NCBI GenBank assembly: GCA_964016885.1
Contig: OZ024745.1
Location: 60,822,001 to 60,886,000, forward strand
From: Eledone cirrhosa
Lineage: Eukaryota
DNA length: 64,000 nt
Direction of reading: 5' to 3'
Part shown: positions 3,022 through 62,560 of the stretch, in pieces
Position numbering within the stretch: position 1 is the first letter of the stretch
Layout of the letters: every line of letters starts with the position of its first letter
Notes under the pieces: model-generated
What the model saw: only the letters and a program-made list of their open reading frames with translations
What the model was told of the DNA's origin: nothing
The model's database searches: none
Position numbers and translations under genes: made by a program

Positions 3022-3883
3022 ACATAGAGTTTCTTTCTTTGGCTCATCAGAAACCATATCAGTGCTGGAGGTGGCCGTTGTAGTATTTGGTATATTTTAG
3101 CTTTAGTTGGATCAATTGTGAAGACGTTGACAGAGGTAAAAGTAATGGTTGAGGGTAATGACGTTAGTGGTGATGGTGGTACTGGTGGTAGTATCAGTGA
3201 GATGATGTTGCCGTATTTTGGTGGTGGTTATTACTTGCCGAACAACGATAGATCACAAGGTGACAAAACCCTGGTCTCAAAGTTGCGAGATTTTTACAAG
3301 CGGCTTCCCTCAGTTCTTGTTGGATTTACCTAGTAGAAAATTGTTGTCCGTGAGGTCGAGCGAACAGGGAACTAATTTTGTCCATATAACACTTATAAAG
3401 ATGAAACAAAACAGACGATTAAACCATTACGAATTCATAATATTCGGGTGTAGTGGGTGGGGGGCGGGGGGGGGGGGTCAGTTGGAGTCACATTTCTGAG
3501 CCTGAGTAGATATTAGAAGTTAAGAATGAATGTGGTGTTTTGAGCAGATATTAGGTGTATACATACACACACATAAATATACTACTTTTTATTCTGTGTG
3601 TGTGTCTACTTTCTTTCGCCCCCTCTGTCATGTCAGTTAACTCTTCCTCACACTTCCACTCACTCACTCACTGTTTCTCCTCTCCTCACTTCACCCCGTT
3701 CGCAACGAAAGCAATTTCTCTCTTTCTCACATTGCATTCGTTCGCGAAAGGTCTTTTTTCTAAGCGCTCATATATTCACCTAGCTTATGCTAACAGAATA
3801 ACTATGAAGCTTGTTTCCTTCCTTCTACGGTTAGCTCTACTCTTTGTTGTTTTCCTGTCTCACTCGCTTTACGCGTTTTAATT

Positions 3884-3984
3884 GTCCTAATAACTTAATT
3901 TAGTTATTATTGCACCGACGTGAGGTATATGATTTTTAATGCAATGAAATATCTATGATCGTCGGCAAATCACTGATGAGGGAC
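3884..3984 (+). ncRNA. Rewired (non type I/II/III) hammerhead-like ribozyme, predicted cut after 3929
   Basis: GTCCT [AATAACT/AGTTATT hairpin] ATTGCA CCGACG TG AGGTAT A^ TGATTT TTAA TGCAAT GAA ATATCT ATGAT CGTCGG C AAATCA CTGATGA GGGAC. All core nucleotides and stems I-III are present in non-canonical order. Confidence 0.7.
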
Positions 3985-4398
3985 TTATTTTATTACATGT
4001 TATCCATGTGCTACCAGCAGTATTTTTCTCCCCATTTTATCACATATATTTACCTAAACTGCAATTCTGTTTTTTTCTCTCTCTCTCTCTCTTACTGCTC
4101 CCTCATTCTCTCTGTTTCTCCTACTTTCTTTCGCCCCCTCTGTCATGTCAGTTAACTCTTCCTCACACTTCCACTCACTCACTCACTGTTTCTCCTCTCC
4201 TCACTTCACCCCGTTCCCAACGAAAGCAATTTCTCTCTTTCTCACATTGCATTCGTTCGCGAAAGGTCTTTTTTCTAAGCGCTCATATATTCACCTAGCT
4301 TATGCTAACAGAATAACTATGAAGCTTGTTTCCTTCCTTCTACGGTTAGCTCTACTCTTTGTTGTTTTCCTGTCTCACTCGCTTTACGCGTTTTAATT

Positions 4399-4499
4399 GT
4401 CCTAATAACTTAATTTAGTTATTATTGCACCGACGTAAGGTATATGATTTTTAATGCAATGAAATATCTATGATCGTCGGCAAATCACTGATGAGGGAC
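4399..4499 (+). ncRNA. Rewired hammerhead-like ribozyme, second tandem copy, predicted cut after 4444
   Basis: Same as 3884-3984 except one change in an unpaired linker (TG to TA). Confidence 0.7.
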
Positions 4500-4549
4500 T
4501 TATTTTATTACATGTTATCCATGTGCTACCAGCAGTATTCCCCATTTTA

Positions 4550-5754: not shown

Positions 5755-5803
5755 GATTCTACAGGACTAGAACTGTTTCATTCATTTGAAATCATCAGGA
5801 ATC
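5755..5803 (-). ncRNA. Type I hammerhead ribozyme
   Basis: Minus strand GATTC CTGATGA T-TTCA-AA-TGAA-T GAAACAG TTCTAGTC CTGTA^ GAATC. Confidence 0.8.
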
Positions 5804-11121: not shown

Positions 11122-11210
11122 AGTGTATATATATATATATATATATAATCTTCGGTTTGCTTTTATCCTTCTATGTTGTTTACTTGTCCCCCTCGCCTTA
11201 CGCGAATTCT

Positions 11211-11314
11211 GGTCCCAATAACTTGTTTTAGTTATTGCTCGCACCAACCTGAGGTATCTGATTTTTAATGCGATGAAATACCAATGATGGTTGGAAAATC
11301 ACTGACGAAGGACT
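11211..11314 (+). ncRNA. Rewired hammerhead-like ribozyme, diverged copy, predicted cut after 11258 (AUC)
   Basis: GGTCCC [AATAACT/AGTTATT] GC TCGCA CCAACC TG AGGTAT C^ TGATTT TTAA TGCGA T GAA ATACC AATGAT GGTTGG A AAATCA CTGACGA AGGACT. Compensatory changes relative to the 3884 copy. Confidence 0.7.
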
Positions 11315-11368
11315 ATTTTTATCATATGTAACCCATGTGCAAACCACGCAGTATTCTTCTTTCTTCTC

Positions 11369-11409
<41 letters not shown>

Positions 11410-12353: not shown

Positions 12354-12734
12354 TCCTTTGTCAGTGTTGAACAAACGAGCAACGATGGTTGCTGGACACT
12401 ACGGCTTAATACGGGATGTTTGTTTACAAACACACCGAGCATTATAATACATGTTCAGTGAATCAATACGTACATATATATGTGTGTGCATGTATGTATA
12501 TATATATATACATACTACTGTACGTCTGTATATATATGTGTATGTACGTGTACATACTTATATTTAAGTAACAGCCGTACTAAGAGTGGGAAATGAAATT
12601 TCGTTTCATTTTTTCCGTTTATATATATATATATATATACAAAAAGTTATGAAACGAAAGGAGCTGTGTGGTTACTAAAAACAAGGTTTACGATGGTGGT
12701 TAGGACGGAACAGGAGGAGAAAGGAAGAAAGGAG

Positions 12735-12850
12735 TTTCCATCGTCAGCTGTAAATGTTTCCCGAACCGATGTTTCGGCGCTGAATTACAGGACATCGGTG
12801 TAGTTCTGGTGCGCCCGACGCCTTTTATTAATCAAAAGGCCAGGTGGAAA
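12735..12850 (-). ncRNA. Rewired hammerhead-like ribozyme, second sequence-unrelated family, predicted GUC site at 12793-12791
   Basis: Minus strand TTTCCA CCTG [GCCTTTT/AAAAGGC] GTCG GGCGC A CCAGAAC TACA CCGATGT C^ CTGTAA TTCA GCGCC GAA ACATCG GTTCGGG AAACAT TTACAG CTGACGA TGGAAA. Confidence 0.7.
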
Positions 12851-13346
12851 AGGAGAGAGAAAAAGAGAGAACAAAAGGAGAGAGAAAAGGAAAGAGAGGG
12901 GAAAGGAGGAAAACAGGGGGGAAAAGATGAGGAGAGAGAGGGAGAGGGGGAAAATAGGAAAGGAATGGAAGAAAAAAAGTGTGCAGGTCCCATCGTGGGA
13001 AGACACAGGTGAAAGAAACATGCAAAAAAGTAACCGTGGAAAAATAGGGAAAGTAAGTTGTGGCCAACCTGGGAGACTTTAGCCTGGGGGTCAGTTACGA
13101 CTCAGAACTGGTTTAATCGTGCTGCCTCTCAGATAGACAGGAGAAAGTGAGAGAGAGACACGGGCAACCAAAAGGGTGGGAGGAGAAGGGAGAGGACGAT
13201 AATCCAGAAGGGTTTATCTACGGCGGTGGTAAAAACCATATAAGCAAAAGGGATATTCAATTTGTTGGTAATTCAACAAATATAAATGTTTATAACTGAT
13301 TCAGAGCACTCGACAGCTTTAGTTATAGTTTCCTTTATTTAATATC

Positions 13347-40466: not shown

Positions 40467-42204
40467 CACCGTGTAACAAAAAAAAAATGTTTTCTCTGTT
40501 CCTGGCTTGTAATCACTTTTTTATGTTGCTTAGGTCCCAAATAAAAAAAAAAGTGCTATTAAACAGTTAAAAGTTTGGGTTTGTAAAAATTCTAAGCTAT
40601 TCACTAGAATTATTTGTATGCTGGATTTTACATTGTATGTAAGTTTAATTTGCTTATGTTAAATGATTTTTTTTTTATATATGTTTCAGGTTAAATTAAA
40701 ATGATAAAATAAAGAGTAATACCTAAAGAAAATTATAAAAGTGCATTAAAGTATAAAATTGTTAAAAAGTGGATTAAAGAGATTTATTGATACTGGATTT
40801 TCGCACCCTGAATAAAGGGTAAGTTGTGTTTTAAGCATTCGTCTCCAGGATGAAGCAGTGGAACTTGGTCAAGGAGGAAGTGCAGGTGACAAGTCAGAGA
40901 AGTCGACACGAACCTTTCTCAGGCTTTTAGATTCTTAGGGATAGCCTCTGCTTCTGCCATGACGTGCCTGGACTGTTTGACGTTATTGGGGTGCCGTTTG
41001 TGCCCAAGGAGTGGCGGCTATTTATAGACAGCTCCACCACAAGTTTGAAGGCTGTCCTCCTCCACAATGGAAACAAGTTCCCGACACTGCCCCTAGCCCA
41101 TTCAGTCTGCCTGAAGGAAGATTACTGCAGTGTGAAAGTCCTCTTGGAAATTCTGCAATACAACCAGTACAATTGGGAAATCATTGGAGACTTCAAGATG
41201 GTGGCTTTCCTGCTTGGACTCCAAGGAGGCTTTATCAAATTCCAATGCCTCCTCTGCCTTTTGGGACAGCAGAGCCACCTCCAACCACTACAAAAGAAAG
41301 AACTGGGAGCAGCGAACAGAATTTGTAGTTGGGACCCGGAATGTCATGTGGGAGCCACTGGTTGATCCCAGGATTGTGCTCATGCCGCCACTGCACATTG
41401 AGTTGGGGTTGATGAAGCAGTTTGTGAAGGCTCTCAACCAAGAATCAGTCGCTTTTAAGTACCTTCTTGAGTTCTTTCCCAAGTTATCTGAGGCCAAAAT
41501 CAAAGGTGGAATTTTTGTTGGACCTCAGATAAAGAAGGTGGTTGAGTTCTCCAATAAGCTCAACAGGATTGAGAGAACAGCATGGAACTGTTTCAAGGCA
41601 GTTGTTAAGGGCTTCCTGGGCAACTACAGAGCTGAAAACTACCAGCAACTGGTGCAGGATCTGATAAAGGCTTTTGGCGCCATGGGGTGCAGGATGTCGC
41701 TTAAACTGCATATGCTGGACGCTCACCTGGAAAAATTCAAGGACAATATGGGCACCTACTCAGAAGAACAAGGCGAACAATTCCACCAAGATGTGAAAGA
41801 GATATAGCGGAGGTACCAGGGCCACTACAATGAAAAAATGATGGGGGACTATATCTGGAGGCTAGTGCGGGAATGCGACCTGGACTACAACCACAAATCC
41901 AGGAAATCCAGTCATTCCTGACGTGTATAAGTTGCTTTATAAGTGTTATTTGTTTTTACTTGTTTGCATTTGATAAGCTTGTGTAATAAAATAAATATAT
42001 ACTCTGTTGATTTAATTATATGAACTGATAAATTTTAAAAAAATGTGTTTTTTTCTTGAAAAATATGAAAATTTCGAAATATCAAACTCCTGACCACAAA
42101 CCCAAACTTCTGATTAAATAATAGTGTTTTTTTTATAATAATGGGATATAACAAACCATGAAATGACACTTAGAACCGGGGAACAAAAAATATGTTACAC
42201 GATG
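40467..42204 (+). mobile_element. Chapaev3-like (CMC) DNA transposon, internally deleted
   Basis: Termini CACCGTGTAACA / TGTTACACGATG with about 100 bp of imperfect subterminal symmetry, 3-bp TSD TTG, and a transposase remnant inside. Confidence 0.8.
40940..41920 (+). pseudogene. Chapaev3-like transposase, C-terminal part
   Basis: WRLFIDSS..SLKAVLLHNGN, GDFKM, PPLHIELGLMKQFVKAL, GIFVGPQI, FLGN, MSLKLH and SEEQGEQFHQD motifs. Frameshift near 41260 and a stop at 41805. Confidence 0.8.
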
Positions 42205-43264
42205 TTGTTAGTCACAATCAGTTATGAAATTTGAGGAGGGAGGGGTTAGTCATTTGAATAGAACAGAATTTGACAGGTATTTGAACTCAGAACAAATACC
42301 ATAAGGCATTTGCCCGTCCCTCTAGCCATAGACTCAATCTATAGTAATTTTACTAAAATTAACTAAATATAAATATTAATTCTTTCTAACATTGACACAA
42401 GGTCAGAAATTTGATACAAGCAGAATATCGACTGTATTGACACTAGTACATTATTTTGTCGACTGTGGAAAGATGGAATGTAAAGTTGACCTCAGCAGGA
42501 TTTGAACTCAGAATGTAAAAAGATAGAACAAATACTGCAATGACAAATTATATCCGACGCTCCATAAGTATATATTGATTTTTAGCCAGCATACTTGGGA
42601 GAATGGTAAAGTTGATTTAATCAATCCTAGTATTTGACTGGTACTTTATTTTATCGATCCCGGAACAATGAAAGGCAAAGTTGACATCGGCAAGATTTGA
42701 ACTCAGAATGTAAAGAGATAGAAAAATATACCGCAAAAGCATTTTATTCGACGCTCTACCTATTCTGCCAAGACACTATGCTGCTTAGTAAATACTAATA
42801 GCTTCTACTTTAAGCACATGGCTAGTTATTTGGGGGTGAAAGGAAGATAAGTATATTGGTCCCAGTTTTTTACTGGAAATTTATTTTATCAGCAAAGGAA
42901 GGATAACAGGCACAGTCGACCTCGGGCGGGATTTGAACTCTACTTAATAAATAATTATGATAAAACATATATTATATATATCGTCGGTTAAATTAGATTG
43001 TGTTTAACAATAAAAGTCTTCTTGGAACAGATAAGGTAAATTAACTAATTAACGTAAGGAGCAATTAAAATGCTAATCAGTATTTTAAACAACTCTCTGA
43101 TTTTAGGTGAAATCTTTTGTTCTAGTCACCATGAAAGTTTCTACGTAAAACCTTCACGTGAGCTAGCAATGATAATATGTCTTTCTATGTGTGGTTGATA
43201 TATCCTATCTGTTATCTGGGTGTATACATACCCATACATACATACATGCATACATACATACATA

Positions 43265-44200
43265 TATACATGGAATAAAGCCTGATATAAATCTCTTACC
43301 CAGAGAAATCGGAAGATCATATTCAATGTTCAAACAAGATGAACAAATTGACCAATTTACAGAAAAAGTTGTGCATGGATATTTGAGACGTAAAACACAG
43401 ACCATAGAGGGGATAAACCACTCAAAAAGCATGGCATGGAGTTCTGACAAGTTTATGACATCACACCTTGAGAGATATCTCTATGCAATACAGGAACAAG
43501 AACTCCCTACCAAATATCTGCTGCACAAAAGGGGAGGGCCATCAGCTGACAATAAATGTAGGCTATGTAAAACAAAGATCGAGAATGTAAGCCACATTGT
43601 TGCCAGCTGCGAAAGAATGTCATCTCGCTACTACCTCCCCATAAGACACGATGGGATAGCTAGAACCATCTGGAACGCACTTCGGAAAACAAAATTAACA
43701 ACAAGCGAGGAAGAATATATTGAGACAGATGGCACTAAGGTGGAACCTGAAAATAAAAACTGCCACCAAATTAAAGCACAACCGGTCTGATATTGTTGTT
43801 TGGGACCACACATTGAAAACGTGTTCTGTTGTGGAGATCAGCTGCCCACTTGATGTAAACGTTGTCAGAAAAATACAGGAGAAGGAAGACATCTACGGAC
43901 CATTGATGAGGAGTTTACAAATCCAGTATCTAAGATACACCTTTAGCTTCATACGCATCATTATTGGAGCTACGGGTTATATACCAACCCGCTTGGACCA
44001 AAGTATGACTGAACTTGGATTTGCGGACAAAGAGCGCAGCTCCCTAATTCATAGTCTACAAATGGCTGCGATAGCTGGCACCTTCAAAATTTGCAAAACA
44101 TTCTTGCGATTGAAGGGATGACAATTTCTTTTCTTTTACAACCTTGCTACCAGGAAGGTGGCCGGCCAAAAATATACTCGAAATTAAGAGAAAGAGATAA
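43265..44200 (+). mobile_element. R4/Dong-like LINE, 5'-truncated, in (TACA)n
   Basis: CCHC knuckle CRLC..HIVASC, then RHD and RSDIVVWD..VVEISCP RLE motifs. Frameshift near 43740. Confidence 0.85.
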
Positions 44201-46699: not shown

Positions 46700-47618
46700 A
46701 TAAAGTGGATGAATACTTCAACAAGCACTATGTACCTATAGAAATATGCAAGGTGTTTATAATAGTTGTGGTTCGATGGTACTAATTTGAGATACCAGAA
46801 CAACATAAAAAGAGCGGAGCAAGCGGTTATCAAACAATTCTCTAAATAAATTAATCACCTGTCTATTGCTGTTACCAACGGTTTCACCATTCCAAAAATT
46901 GGAAATCCATAGAATTTCCAATGGAAAGAATTGGATCTTCAGACACCTTATTTCCATACTATAAGGTTGCTAGCCTTACAGTAAGTTAATATTTCACTTC
47001 CTGCCTAACGCATGCGGTCAGGCCGTTAAAATGACACACACGCAAAATAAGGTCGCAAGTAAGAGCTGTTTATTATAAAATTGTTGATACTGCCACTAAA
47101 ATTAGCAGCACTATTCAACGTTTTGTTCTCTACATACGGAGAAAAATTATAAAAGTGGATGAATACTTCAACAGGCACTAGGTACCTATAGAAATATGCA
47201 AGGTGTTTATAATAGTTGTGGTTCGATGGTACTAATTTGAGATACCAGAACAACATAAAAAGAGCGGAGCAAGCGGTTATCAAACAATTCTCTAAATAAA
47301 TTAAAAAACGATTTAAATAATCACCTGTTCTATTGCTGTTACTGACGGTTTCACCATTCCAAAAATTGGAAATCCATAGAATTTCCAATGGAAAGAAATG
47401 GATCTTCAGACAGCTTATTTCCATACTATAAGGTTGCAAGCCTTACAGTATGTCAATATTTCGCTTCCTGCCTAACGCATGCAGTCAAGCCGTTAAAATG
47501 ACACACACGCAAAATCAGGTCGCAAGTAAGAGCTGTTTATTATAAACTTGTTGATACTGCCACTAAAATTAGCAGCACTATTCAACGTTTTGTTCTCTAC
47601 ATACGGAGAAAAATTATA
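46700..47618 (-). mobile_element. Tandem dimer of a 450-467-bp hammerhead-containing unit (retrozyme-like)
   Basis: 46702 repeats at 47152. Hammerheads at 46868-46947 and 47335-47414 (minus strand GCTGT CTGAAGA ... GAAAC CGTCA GTA^ ACAGC). Confidence 0.8.
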
Positions 47619-47646
47619 ATACGTACATATATATATACACACACAC

Positions 47647-47721
<75 letters not shown>

Positions 47722-47724
<3 letters not shown>

Positions 47725-49617
47725 AGAAAATAAAACTCAACCCCAAAGTGTTCTTCTCATTCGCTAAAAAACACAAGGTTACCGTCTCCACTGTTGGCCC
47801 CCTAGTTGATGAAAATGGCACACTCCAGGACAATGCCAAAACCATGGGCGAGATACTGCAGAAACAATACTGCTCTGTTTTCAGTAACTCTGATATGGCC
47901 GATCTGGGCCGTATCAGTGATATTAACCCCCAACACACTATATCAGACATAACGTTTGGCGCCCCTAATGTCTTAGCGGCAATAAACGAAATTAAACACA
48001 ATTCAGCAGTAGGCCCCGACAGGTTCCCTGCTTTTGTCCTGAAGGTGTGTCGACACCAACTTGCAACTCCTCTTGCTAATCTGTGGAGGAACTCACTGGA
48101 CACTGGCTATATTCCTGAAAACTTTCTGTCCTAGTCCGTTGTCCCAGTCTTCAAAAAGGGAAATAAGTCCCTTGCAGTGAACTACCGTCCGATCTCACTC
48201 ACTTCTCATATTATCAAGGTATTTGAGAGGGTGGTGAGATCACGAATAACCCACTTTCTTGAAAGCAACGGCCTGCTGAACTCCAACCAACATGGGTTCC
48301 GTAATGGAAGGGACTGCCTAACGCAGCTCCTGCATCACTTTGACGATGTTTTGAGAGCCTTGGGAGAGGGCTCCAACACTGATGTCATCTACCTTGATTT
48401 CAGCAAGGCCTTCGACAGGGTTGATCATAAGATTCTACTGAAAAAACTATCCAATGTTGGTGTCTCTGGAAGGTTACTACAGTGGATCAAATGTTTCCTG
48501 ACAGGCAGAACCCAGCATGTTGTAGTCGAAGGAGTAGAATCAAGCCCTGCCAAAGTCCGCAGTGGCGTCCCACAAGGCACTGTGTTGGGCCCACTTCTTT
48601 TCATCATCTACATTAATGACATTACTGACATCATCAAACACAGTAACATCAGAATCTTCGCAGATGATTCCAAGCTCCAAAGGGTCATCAATGAGGTGGG
48701 TGACCGGACTTGCCTTCAGACAGACCTACTGGCTGTTATCCAATGGGCAGAGATGAATAATATGCTGTTGAATGAGGATAAATTTGAACTAATCCACTTT
48801 GGAAAAAAGGATGCTCTGAAACTACCATACTCTCTTCCTTCGGGTGAAACTCTGGTGGCTTCCAATAACATCAGAGACCTGGGAGTAATTGTGGACAACA
48901 ATATAAAGCTGGGCCACTCATATAAACAGCAAAGTTGATATGACCCGCAGAATGTGTTCCTGGATTCTCAGAACTTTCCAGTCGAGAGTTATCTACACTG
49001 TTGTCCTTCGCCACATTTTCCCGACCCCACCTTGAATAATGTTGTCCACTGTGGTCACCCCACACGAAACAAAGTATCATGAAAGTTGAAGCACCCAAAG
49101 GTCAATTACAAAAAAGATAGTTGGCATGACAGGCCTTGACTATTGGGGTCGATTAGAAAAGCTCAACCTTTATTCTCTCCAACGTCGCCGTGAGCGCTAC
49201 ATTATCTGTATGATGTGGAAAATATTCCATCAGCTTAGCCCAAATGATGTTGGCATCATCTTTAGTACACGCAAGGCTTGGGCCCCGTGCTATCCGCCCA
49301 GGACAAAATTTCCACTCGCATCACATAACAACAATACGGCACAATTATTTCACCTCAATTGGCGCTGCACTCTTTAATTACACCAAAACACATCAAAGCA
49401 GAGACAGATCCCATCAAGTTTGAGAAGTCTTTGGATAAATTCCTTCAAGAAATCCCGAATAAGCCCCCTACACCCGGATATGCCTCCGTAAACAATAACT
49501 CTCTGATCGACCGGTCAAAGTGCCCAAACACTGATTTGTAAGACTTCGCCAGGTGGTGCTATTAAGTTAGACATAGCCTGGGCCATTACTGGCCGAAACC
49601 TATCAAAGTTATCAAAG

Positions 49618-49758: not shown

Positions 49759-50419
49759 TAAGTAAATATCTTTAAGTCGTTTGGAAGCCTCGACAATGCA
49801 AATGGGTAAATCTCCGGGTAACAAGGTCCGGTGGTGCAGAGAGAGATGTAAGTGGGTGTACGTTGAGATGCGTGGTGTGTATAAGATGTGTGAGATGTGT
49901 AGAATGAAGGGAAGAGTATAAAGGATAAAAATAAAAATAACAACACAAGAGAGAGTTACCTTGGGAGAGATTTAATAGTCCCTATATATTTCGGATTCAC
50001 ATCCATCAACTGGGGTTTTTTCCGGGGTGGGGGAAAAGGTTGTCTGTCGGACAAGTCCGCAACGCGTCTTTCGCTGTTTGTTGTTTTGAATATTCAAAAA
50101 AACAAACAGCGAAAGACGCGTTCCGGACTTGTCCGACAGACAACATTTTCCCCCACCCCGAAAAAACCCCAGTTGATGGATGTGAATCCGAAATATACAG
50201 GGACTATTAAATCTCTCCCAAGGTAACTCTCTCTTGTGTTGTTATTTTTATTTTTATCCTTTATACTCTTCCCTTCATTCTACACATCTCACACATCTCA
50301 TACACACCACGCATCTCAACGTACACCCACTTACATCTCTCTCTCCACCACCGGACCTTGTTACCCGGAGATTTACCCATTTGCATTGTCGAGGCTTCGA
50401 AACGACTTAAAGATATTTA

Positions 50420-53083: not shown

Positions 53084-53374
53084 TATAAAGAAAAAGGGAT
53101 GAAATCGAAAATGCAACTGACGTCTTATTTTTTTAAAAAATATATATATTTATTTGGTTCCTTTACCGGTTTCGCAGTTCTTCTGCTTTTCAAAAGGTGA
53201 GTTGAGATGGAGGGTCTGTGGTTTTTCTCACATGTGAGAAAAACCACAGACCCTCCATCTCAACTCACCTTTTGAAAAGCAGAAGAACTGCGAAACCGGT
53301 AAAGGAACCAAATAAATATATATATTTAAAAAAAAAATAAGACTTCAGTTGCATTTTCGATTTCATCCCTTTTT

Positions 53375-61882: not shown

Positions 61883-61951
<69 letters not shown>

Positions 61952-61955
<4 letters not shown>

Positions 61956-62560
61956 TTTTAATGCAATGAAATATCAATGATGGTTGGCAAATCACTGACG
62001 AAGGACTATTTTTATCATATGTAACCCATGTGCAACCACGCAGTATACTTCTTTCTTCTCATGTTTTTTATATGTATTTACCTCGGCTGCGTTTGTCTGT
62101 TTCTCTCTTACTGCTTCCCCGTTTTCTCTGTTGCTCTCACCTTCTTTCGCCCCCTCTGTCAGTTACACTTTCTCTCGACTGACCACTTCCTCGCACTTCC
62201 ACTCACTCACTCTCTGTTTCTCCCCTTCTCACTTCCTCCCGTTTGGCTTGTAGTGGGTTCTCTTCTTGCTCACATCTCACTCACGTCGGACGGTCTGTAT
62301 CACGATCGCTCATGGAATCCACCCAGCTTATGCTGACCGGATAACCATGTTGCTTGTTTATTCCTATCTTTGCGTTGCTTTCATCCTTCTATGTTGTTTA
62401 CTTGTCTCACTCGCTTTATTTAGCTATTGCTCGCACCAACCTGAGGTATATGATTTTTTAATGCGATGAGTTATCAATGATGGTTGGCAAATCACTGACG
62501 AAGCACTATTTTTATCATATGTAACCCATGTGCAGCCACGCAGTATTCTTCTTTCTTCTC

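Follow-up and report, generated by a model that had tools for sequence, protein, structure and literature searches.

A predicted hammerhead ribozyme in S-G-C order, with stem II built from an upstream strand, in a non-coding tandem repeat of Eledone cirrhosa

Introduction

Hammerhead ribozymes can be described as three blocks: S (a stem III strand, the UH site and a stem I strand), G (a stem II strand, GAAA and a stem III strand) and C (a stem I strand, CUGANGA and a stem II strand). A non-circular order of these blocks, type SGC, has been published and shown to cleave, and in the parts of that paper used here block C is assumed to be uninterruptible, hence the six permutations that are considered (Eckert et al. 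2023, PMC10085705). In the type SGC alignment rows that we draw on, which carry environmental contig identifiers, stem II is contiguous and placed straight after CUGANGA, and the linker from stem I to stem II is typically 3 nt and often UUA (PMC10085705).

Two kinds of mobile element also enter the comparison. The non-LTR retrozymes of animals are defined by type I hammerheads and, in the available portion of the preprint, were searched for with type I models only (bioRxiv 10.64898/2026.07.22.740005). The Naiads are autonomous elements with an N-terminal GIY-YIG and an RT that show (TA)n targeting, partial tandems and inversions; in the sections of the paper used here they are reported to be without canonical hammerheads, although some do possess a hammerhead core, or half of one, that matches none of the descriptors ('HHR_core', 'HHR_half_core'; Craig et al. 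2021, PMC8557442).

Here we describe an element from a 64,000-nt stretch of the Eledone cirrhosa genome (referred to as the window) which probably encodes a self-cleaving hammerhead in S-G-C order, with stem II likely built from an upstream strand, in a non-coding tandem repeat that is likely copied by Penelope-type machinery.

Results

Anatomy of the predicted ribozyme

A first-pass annotation of the window had named six helices at 12850-12735 on the minus strand (Table 1). All six are present, with every base paired in helices I, II, III, Y and Z, the exception being X, which has a single A-G mismatch at 12807. The mismatched letter is a minority variant found in 5/30 of the closest genomic copies, while the pairing letter occurs in the other 25/30 and, across runs X1-X3, takes up about 99% of the depth of the contigs at this site (the four contig runs, all from one study, yielded copy variants only). 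The placing of CTGACGA as the last core segment, the 4-nt linker between stems I and II and the GUC site beside helix III (C at 12791) were all correct as first annotated, and the predicted cut would fall between 12791 and 12790, after GUC. The CUGANGA, GAAA and NUH core letters are present in the window copy and in 29/30 of its nearest copies, stem I flanks the site and CUGANGA, and stem III is closed by A15.1-U16.1 as in other hammerheads. Stem II adjoins GAAA with a G-C pair in all 12 aligned family-2 copies (the family to which this copy belongs), the G being provided by the upstream strand.

Table 1. Positions of the predicted ribozyme, its host element and the family-1 copies in the window.
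Feature	Position	Strand	Remarks
Helix Y, 5' strand	12850-12845	-	Pairs with the bases directly 3' of CUGACGA and closes the motif
Helix Z hairpin	12840-12834/12826-12820	-	7 bp with a 7-nt loop; arm of the predicted four-way junction
Stem II, 5' strand	12815-12811	-	From upstream; first G is the predicted G10.1
Helix X, 5' strand	12809-12803	-	Followed by a 5-nt bulge, 12802-12798
Block S	12797-12792, 12790-12785	-	III 3' strand, GUC site, I 3' strand
Linker	12784-12781	-	4 nt; joins stem I to stem II at their distal ends
Block G	12780-12776, 12775-12773, 12772-12767	-	II 3' strand, GAA (of GAAA), III 5' strand
Helix X, 3' strand	12766-12760	-	Followed by a 6-nt linker, 12759-12754
Block C, first half	12753-12748, 12747-12741	-	I 5' strand, CUGACGA core
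Helix Y, 3' strand	12740-12735	-	Occupies the place of stem II after CUGANGA in ordinary and type SGC hammerheads
Family-2a copy (host element)	12640..13236	-	About 597 nt, 5'-truncated; full monomer 817 nt
(TA)n tract	12620..12639		At the 3' end of the element; presumed insertion target
Family-1 ribozyme	11211..11314 (within 11205-11375)	+	Same layout
Family-1 tandem	3876-4510	+	Cores 3973 and 4488, 515 nt apart
Family-1 copy	61950-62020	+	Truncated; core 61995
Family-1 copy	62430-62520	+	Damaged; core 62495

A search of the window copy against Rfam gave no hammerhead match, and its blocks are not in the circular order of types I-III; an absent match is what would be expected for such a topology, and it lends no support either. 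The Rfam matches within the window were microsatellite-driven miRNAs below threshold with no ribozyme among them, and side matches also drew our attention to long near-perfect inverted repeats at 49989-50195 and 53193-53272. Nested folding, by which pseudoknots cannot be shown, did not support the structure (z -1.08, with 27/200 shuffles as good) and placed a competing helix over the 5' strand of stem II in the window copy.

Comparison with type SGC and other hammerheads

The order of blocks in the Eledone element is site, GAAA, CUGANGA (S-G-C), and like type SGC it has a pseudoknotted core, a short I-to-II linker and all of the core letters, as judged from the parts of PMC10085705 used here. 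The two differ in stem II, which in those same parts follows CUGANGA in type SGC; in Eledone it is formed with an upstream strand, the bases 3' of CUGANGA pair with a far 5' strand to give Y, and a hairpin, Z, stands between Y and the stem II strand. The interaction stem that joins the two flanks of block C in type SGC is likewise absent, as the partner of the 3' flank is here the 5' end of the motif, and the stem II 5' strand is not found 0-2 nt after CUGANGA, where an intact block C would have it. We therefore do not file the Eledone form as type SGC despite the common order: the order is already published, and what is new is the splitting of block C and the Y/Z junction that goes with it. 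It should be noted, too, that the SGC rows available to us are on environmental contigs, whereas the Eledone form is genomic and found in animal retroelements with about 19,000 or more copies. The minimal type I hammerheads of Penelope, Neptune and Hydra share the core and the 3'-terminal position of the Eledone ribozyme but differ in having the circular C-G-S order and a three-way junction with no pseudoknot.

The split is general among the copies. Even with up to two inserted bases allowed, a canonical stem II reaches no more than 2 bp in 86/91 family-1 and 44/45 family-2 copies, or 130/136 distinct copies overall including fold-back and truncated ones, and the upstream stem II is 5-6 bp long in 76/91 and 36/45 of them, respectively.

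Abundance and covariation

The layout is very common in the 3.0-Gb genome. Patterns requiring GAAA ahead of CUGANGA at a set spacing, which overlap one another and miss mutated copies, gave 18,883 matches for family 1 against 9 in the reversed-pattern control, 15,918 against 4 for another pattern, and 1,394 against 11 for a family-2-type pattern, and three full layout matches were found in a random 200 kb of the genome. The first-pass annotation had held that chance pairing should show itself as comparable rates in shuffled sequence, and these were far lower, as a descriptor drawn post hoc from the same sequences (stem I of at least 5 bp, and III, upstream II and Y each of at least 4 bp) matched four times in the window and once in 300 block-wise dinucleotide shuffles.

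We aligned 25 family-1 copies, hand-picked to give about one per subfamily with the fold-back and truncated ones left out, and found the core letters invariant in 25/25. Two-sided changes were seen in 25/35 pairs with I, II, III, X, Y and Z all contributing, and 88.8% of the cells were paired compared with 78.5% when shuffled (0/500 as high) and 27-49% when slid; the shuffles used for both families ignore relatedness and the rows are hand-picked, so these values should be read with this in mind. Compensatory changes in II and X also distinguish the 515-nt family-1 tandem in the window from the copy with its core at 11302. For family 2 (12 copies), pairing was 94% for I, 98% for II, 92% for III, 95% for Z and 75% for Y, with X at 39% in the alignment, where it was mis-registered by the aligner, and at 8-10 bp when read copy by copy. 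None of 500 shuffles reached the family-2 covariation score; two-sided changes were found in only 8/37 pairs (48/500 shuffles were as high) and in none of stem II. In both families the catalytic-core letters and the UH site are invariant while the helices drift.

The kink-turn consensus is a 3-nt bulge followed by tandem G-A/A-G pairs. The joint between III and X fits this in family 1, with G1b and A2b in 25/25 rows, A1n in 24/25 and the full tandem in 17/25, and the window copy at 12735-12850 is without a kink-turn, having a 5-nt bulge there.

The window also holds nine minimal type I hammerhead cores, at 5798(-), 6405(+), 11958(+), 12317(+), 37988(+), 51888(-), 57763(+), 62803(-) and 63371(+), which come from at least four other repeat families, so that both topologies coexist here at high density. 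Elsewhere, L007:1243-1347(+) holds a family-1 variant in which the 3' strand of X is absent, as is most of the connector between III and I, and which may be a natural deletion or a minimal form, and a repeat in L020 and L039 has GAAA upstream of CTGATGA with weak pairing (I 4, III 3, II 2) that is probably due to chance.

The same layout in metagenomes and in Naiads

Further scanning of metagenomes with a pattern found the whole layout in two loci, L303 and L306, among the 119 matches listed, and we regard the other 117 as chance. These two loci are 72% alike over 188 nt, match none of the Eledone loci examined, and show compensatory changes between them in I, II, III and X; neither can form a canonical stem II (0 bp), and both have an upstream one of 5-6 bp. 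Some 70 nt 3' of the core, the two also share a short conserved stretch that resembles a hairpin (L303:400-450, L306:405-450). In the viral scan, 2/96 loci (a single sequence) passed numerically and were rejected for their G-U-rich stem I and 4-bp X and Z.

The full layout was also recognised, by eye, in the 3' UTR of eight of the 54 Naiad consensus records of PMC8557442, from parts 1, 12, 19 and 24 of the 59 of that file together with some of the passages around CTGATGA, CTGACGA, CCGAAAC and TCGAAAC. It runs Y, Z, II, X, III, site, I, linker, II, GAAA, III, X, I, core, Y in Naiad_Ovul, Naiad_EuTe and Naiad_Plae and, naming the remainder by their order in the file, in Naiad_Obim, Naiad-2_Movir and three Acropora records (one with two mismatches). 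The hosts are corals, a box jelly, an acanthocephalan, a clam shrimp and octopus. The helices are mostly 4-13 bp long and unrelated in sequence, with Y only 3 bp in the octopus records, and in each of the eight the C that precedes GAAA has an upstream G as its partner, as in the window element; the octopus Naiad has a kink-turn-like joint in common with family 1. Within the same parts of the file, a ctenophore record (Bfor by file order) has the layout with a stem I of 2 bp only, the nematode Naiads have the ordinary block order, and no such motif was seen by eye in Ppla, Dcar and Omin, which were covered whole, or in the bivalve passages around the four words given above. We note that in several spider or ostracod records (PMC8557442 File S5, parts 17-19) long inserts separate CTGACGA from a GAAA lying well 5' of it, and these may be further rearranged hammerheads.

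These comparisons bear on two alternative explanations. The first is that the pairing arose by chance in one amplified repeat, and here the 30 nearest copies, being 97-100% identical, hold little information. It is refuted by the compensatory changes in unrelated sequences, the genome counts relative to the controls, the shuffles and the Naiad records, and we give it next to no probability. The first-pass annotation had argued for a real structural class, and this was upheld by the covariation among subfamilies, the two metagenome cases and, by eye, the Naiads of five animal groups.

The second is that the element is an ordinary type SGC hammerhead with a stem II of 1-2 bp after CUGANGA, the upstream strand, Y and Z belonging to a different fold, either an alternative one or one that silences the ribozyme. 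Indeed, 41/45 family-2 copies allow a 2-bp stem to be drawn with 1 nt inserted, the published SGC variants used here often have U after CUGAUGA (PMC10085705), and the base 5' to GAAA and the base 3' to CUGANGA are paired in 16/25 family-1 rows, with four types of pair. However, a canonical stem II is impossible in L303 and L306 and, judged by eye among the records covered, in the Naiads of Plae, EuTe and Acropora, yet in these the upstream stem II is 5-6 bp long and shows compensatory changes. The family-2 base after the core covaries with Y (of the 12 aligned copies, 9 have U-A and 2 have A-U as the first Y pair) and not with the base before GAAA, and the single family-1 pair would fit a one-step branch shift of the same junction. 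We consider this explanation distinctly improbable and retain the upstream stem II as the preferred reading.

The host element and its mobility

The host element had been placed at about 12640-13250 in the first annotation and described as pyrimidine-rich on the ribozyme strand; it is 71% C+T and extends over 12640..13236, since its blastn matches with 30 genomic copies end at 13236, where they meet (TA)n. The 817-nt family-2a monomer was defined from a tandem pair in L019. No ORF of at least 120 aa overlaps 12640..13236, and the element has no RT and GIY-YIG ORF of its own (it is non-autonomous). As its closest 30 copies are 97-100% identical, family-2a copies were likely moved recently by a Penelope-like family ending in (TA)n. 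Other regions of the window, at 40931-41807(+), 43176-44121(+) and 47502-48938(+), read like what we take to be a DNA transposase and two LINE-type RT regions.

Among 41 rows, in which some loci are counted twice, 30 end between +142 and +158 from the predicted cut, mostly running into (TA)n, whereas the 5' extents vary from 25 nt to the full unit and fold-back copies are present. Tandem spacings are mostly 470-820 nt overall, with 470-706 nt in family 1 (plus one 841-nt gap between unlike copies) and 745-817 nt in family 2. The (TA)n target, fixed 3' end, 5' truncation, partial tandems and inversions are all habits of Penelope-like elements, and the non-coding tandem unit with one ribozyme per unit is that of a retrozyme. 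In these respects the element resembles the non-LTR retrozymes, which in the portion of the preprint used here have non-coding tandem units of a few hundred nucleotides, one hammerhead per unit and a tie to Penelope (bioRxiv 10.64898/2026.07.22.740005). Those carry a type I hammerhead, whereas the Eledone element is without one and has a topology that type I models miss, and it appears to behave like a Penelope-mobilised retrozyme that lacks a type I ribozyme.

The copies are often in tandem, and minimal Penelope hammerheads reportedly cleave as dimers (this is said to go back to Lunse in 2017), and the Eledone core might similarly be formed only between two RNA copies, as dimers or tandem neighbours. 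Against this stand the local closure of the motif by Y, the length of the helices, which are not palindromes, and the cleavage of type SGC ribozymes as single molecules in the parts of PMC10085705 used here; we find the two-copy reading highly improbable, and a core formed within one RNA is preferred.

The two families had been described as unrelated in sequence. This holds insofar as blastn (word 7, E<=1e-3) found no match between the family-2a monomer and five family-1 monomers, but it does not extend to the ribozymes, which align better than 299/300 core-preserving shuffles. From their sequences, the two window families may be distant relatives and not independent inventions.

The link to Penelope suggested in the first annotation holds at the level of the Naiad clade, but we found no autonomous parent with such a 3' end in the Eledone genome. 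None of 50 loci (30 with GIY-YIG and 20 with long ORFs) held an autonomous element ending in this ribozyme, tblastn around ribozyme copies gave nested neighbours only (e.g. L161, L166 and L117), and comparison of 3' UTRs with the element identified no common end. The Naiad-like RT remnants of this genome are 67-85% alike and full of stops, and patterns for Naiad RT motifs gave 21 matches against 54 in the control and 13 against 2, those in an RT context all being broken by stops. No readable ribozyme was seen at the 3' ends of these remnants, only a degenerate core-like word without GAAA, and the octopus Naiad ribozyme pattern matched the Eledone genome once, without the expected spacing letters. 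Long RT/GIY-YIG ORFs with a C-terminal nuclease are present (938 and 1096 residues from stop to stop), three families of this kind end in (TA)n, and several such families are without CUGANGA in their shared 3' UTR. Two Penelope-like ORFs with RT, C-terminal GIY-YIG and a CxxxxCxxC linker, L111:5809-8622(-) and L113:775-4062(+), are candidate mobilising enzymes, and no CUGANGA core was found in the 3' UTR examined for either.

Discussion

We propose that stems I and III and the CUGANGA/GAAA/UH core would form as in any hammerhead, with A9 crossing into helix Y rather than stem II. In the simplest reading, the base of stem II would be a four-way junction between the core, Y, Z and stem II itself, and the 4-nt linker would tie the distal ends of I and II, probably in place of a loop-loop contact. 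X would fold back from stem III through a bulge, which has the kink-turn consensus in family 1. Cleavage after GUC might then turn tandem transcripts into RNAs of unit length, which would be closed into circles by re-ligation in the manner reported for retrozymes. A Penelope-type RT/GIY-YIG enzyme would nick (TA)n, begin copying some 150 nt downstream of the cut site and continue across the junction. Copying through a re-ligated junction would explain why the DNA copies read across the cleavage site; as they cross the predicted cut, their template must have been uncut or re-ligated, and a circle is the likely form. The ribozyme itself is likely of Naiad origin. Since the Eledone genome has Naiads in a decayed state, the likely mover of the young families is a different Penelope-like family that targets (TA)n.

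That DNA copies read through the predicted cut would also suit a fold which is real, no longer catalytic, and kept as a binding or packaging signal for a retrotransposon protein. Eight of nine canonical retrozyme dimers failed to cleave in one study, in the part of it used here (bioRxiv 10.64898/2026.07.22.740005), and we found no hammerhead in which severing A9 from G10.1 had been tried. Binding would need no such exact letters, though, and the core letters and UH site are invariant amid drifting helices in several animal groups, so that we regard the loss of catalysis as improbable and continue with a ribozyme that would cleave.

The Naiads share with the window element their (TA)n targeting, partial tandems and inversions, and eight of the records covered have the same layout; they are autonomous in the sections of PMC8557442 used here, whereas the window element has no ORF and its likeness to them is known from the layout. 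On the strength of these sequences, the split layout is likely to be the missing ribozyme of the Naiads that carry it. We go further in thinking it probable that a broad branch of the Naiads, from ctenophores and cnidarians to arthropods and cephalopods, has its true ribozyme in this topology with a severed CUGANGA, that it seeded the retrozymes of about 20,000 copies seen here, and that its reported absence is an artefact of searching.

A literature search, in which few subscription journals were covered, returned no account of the split layout or of a Naiad ribozyme. The layout contradicts the stated rule for hammerheads that block C is uninterruptible, and moves the non-circular permutations from environmental RNA contigs to animal chromosomes, where they occur at very high copy number. 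It also offers a direct answer to why Naiads appear to be without hammerheads, an absence which had served as an argument that ribozymes are dispensable in Penelope-like elements. As standard descriptors and Rfam both miss the split layout, a class of retrozymes has probably been overlooked.
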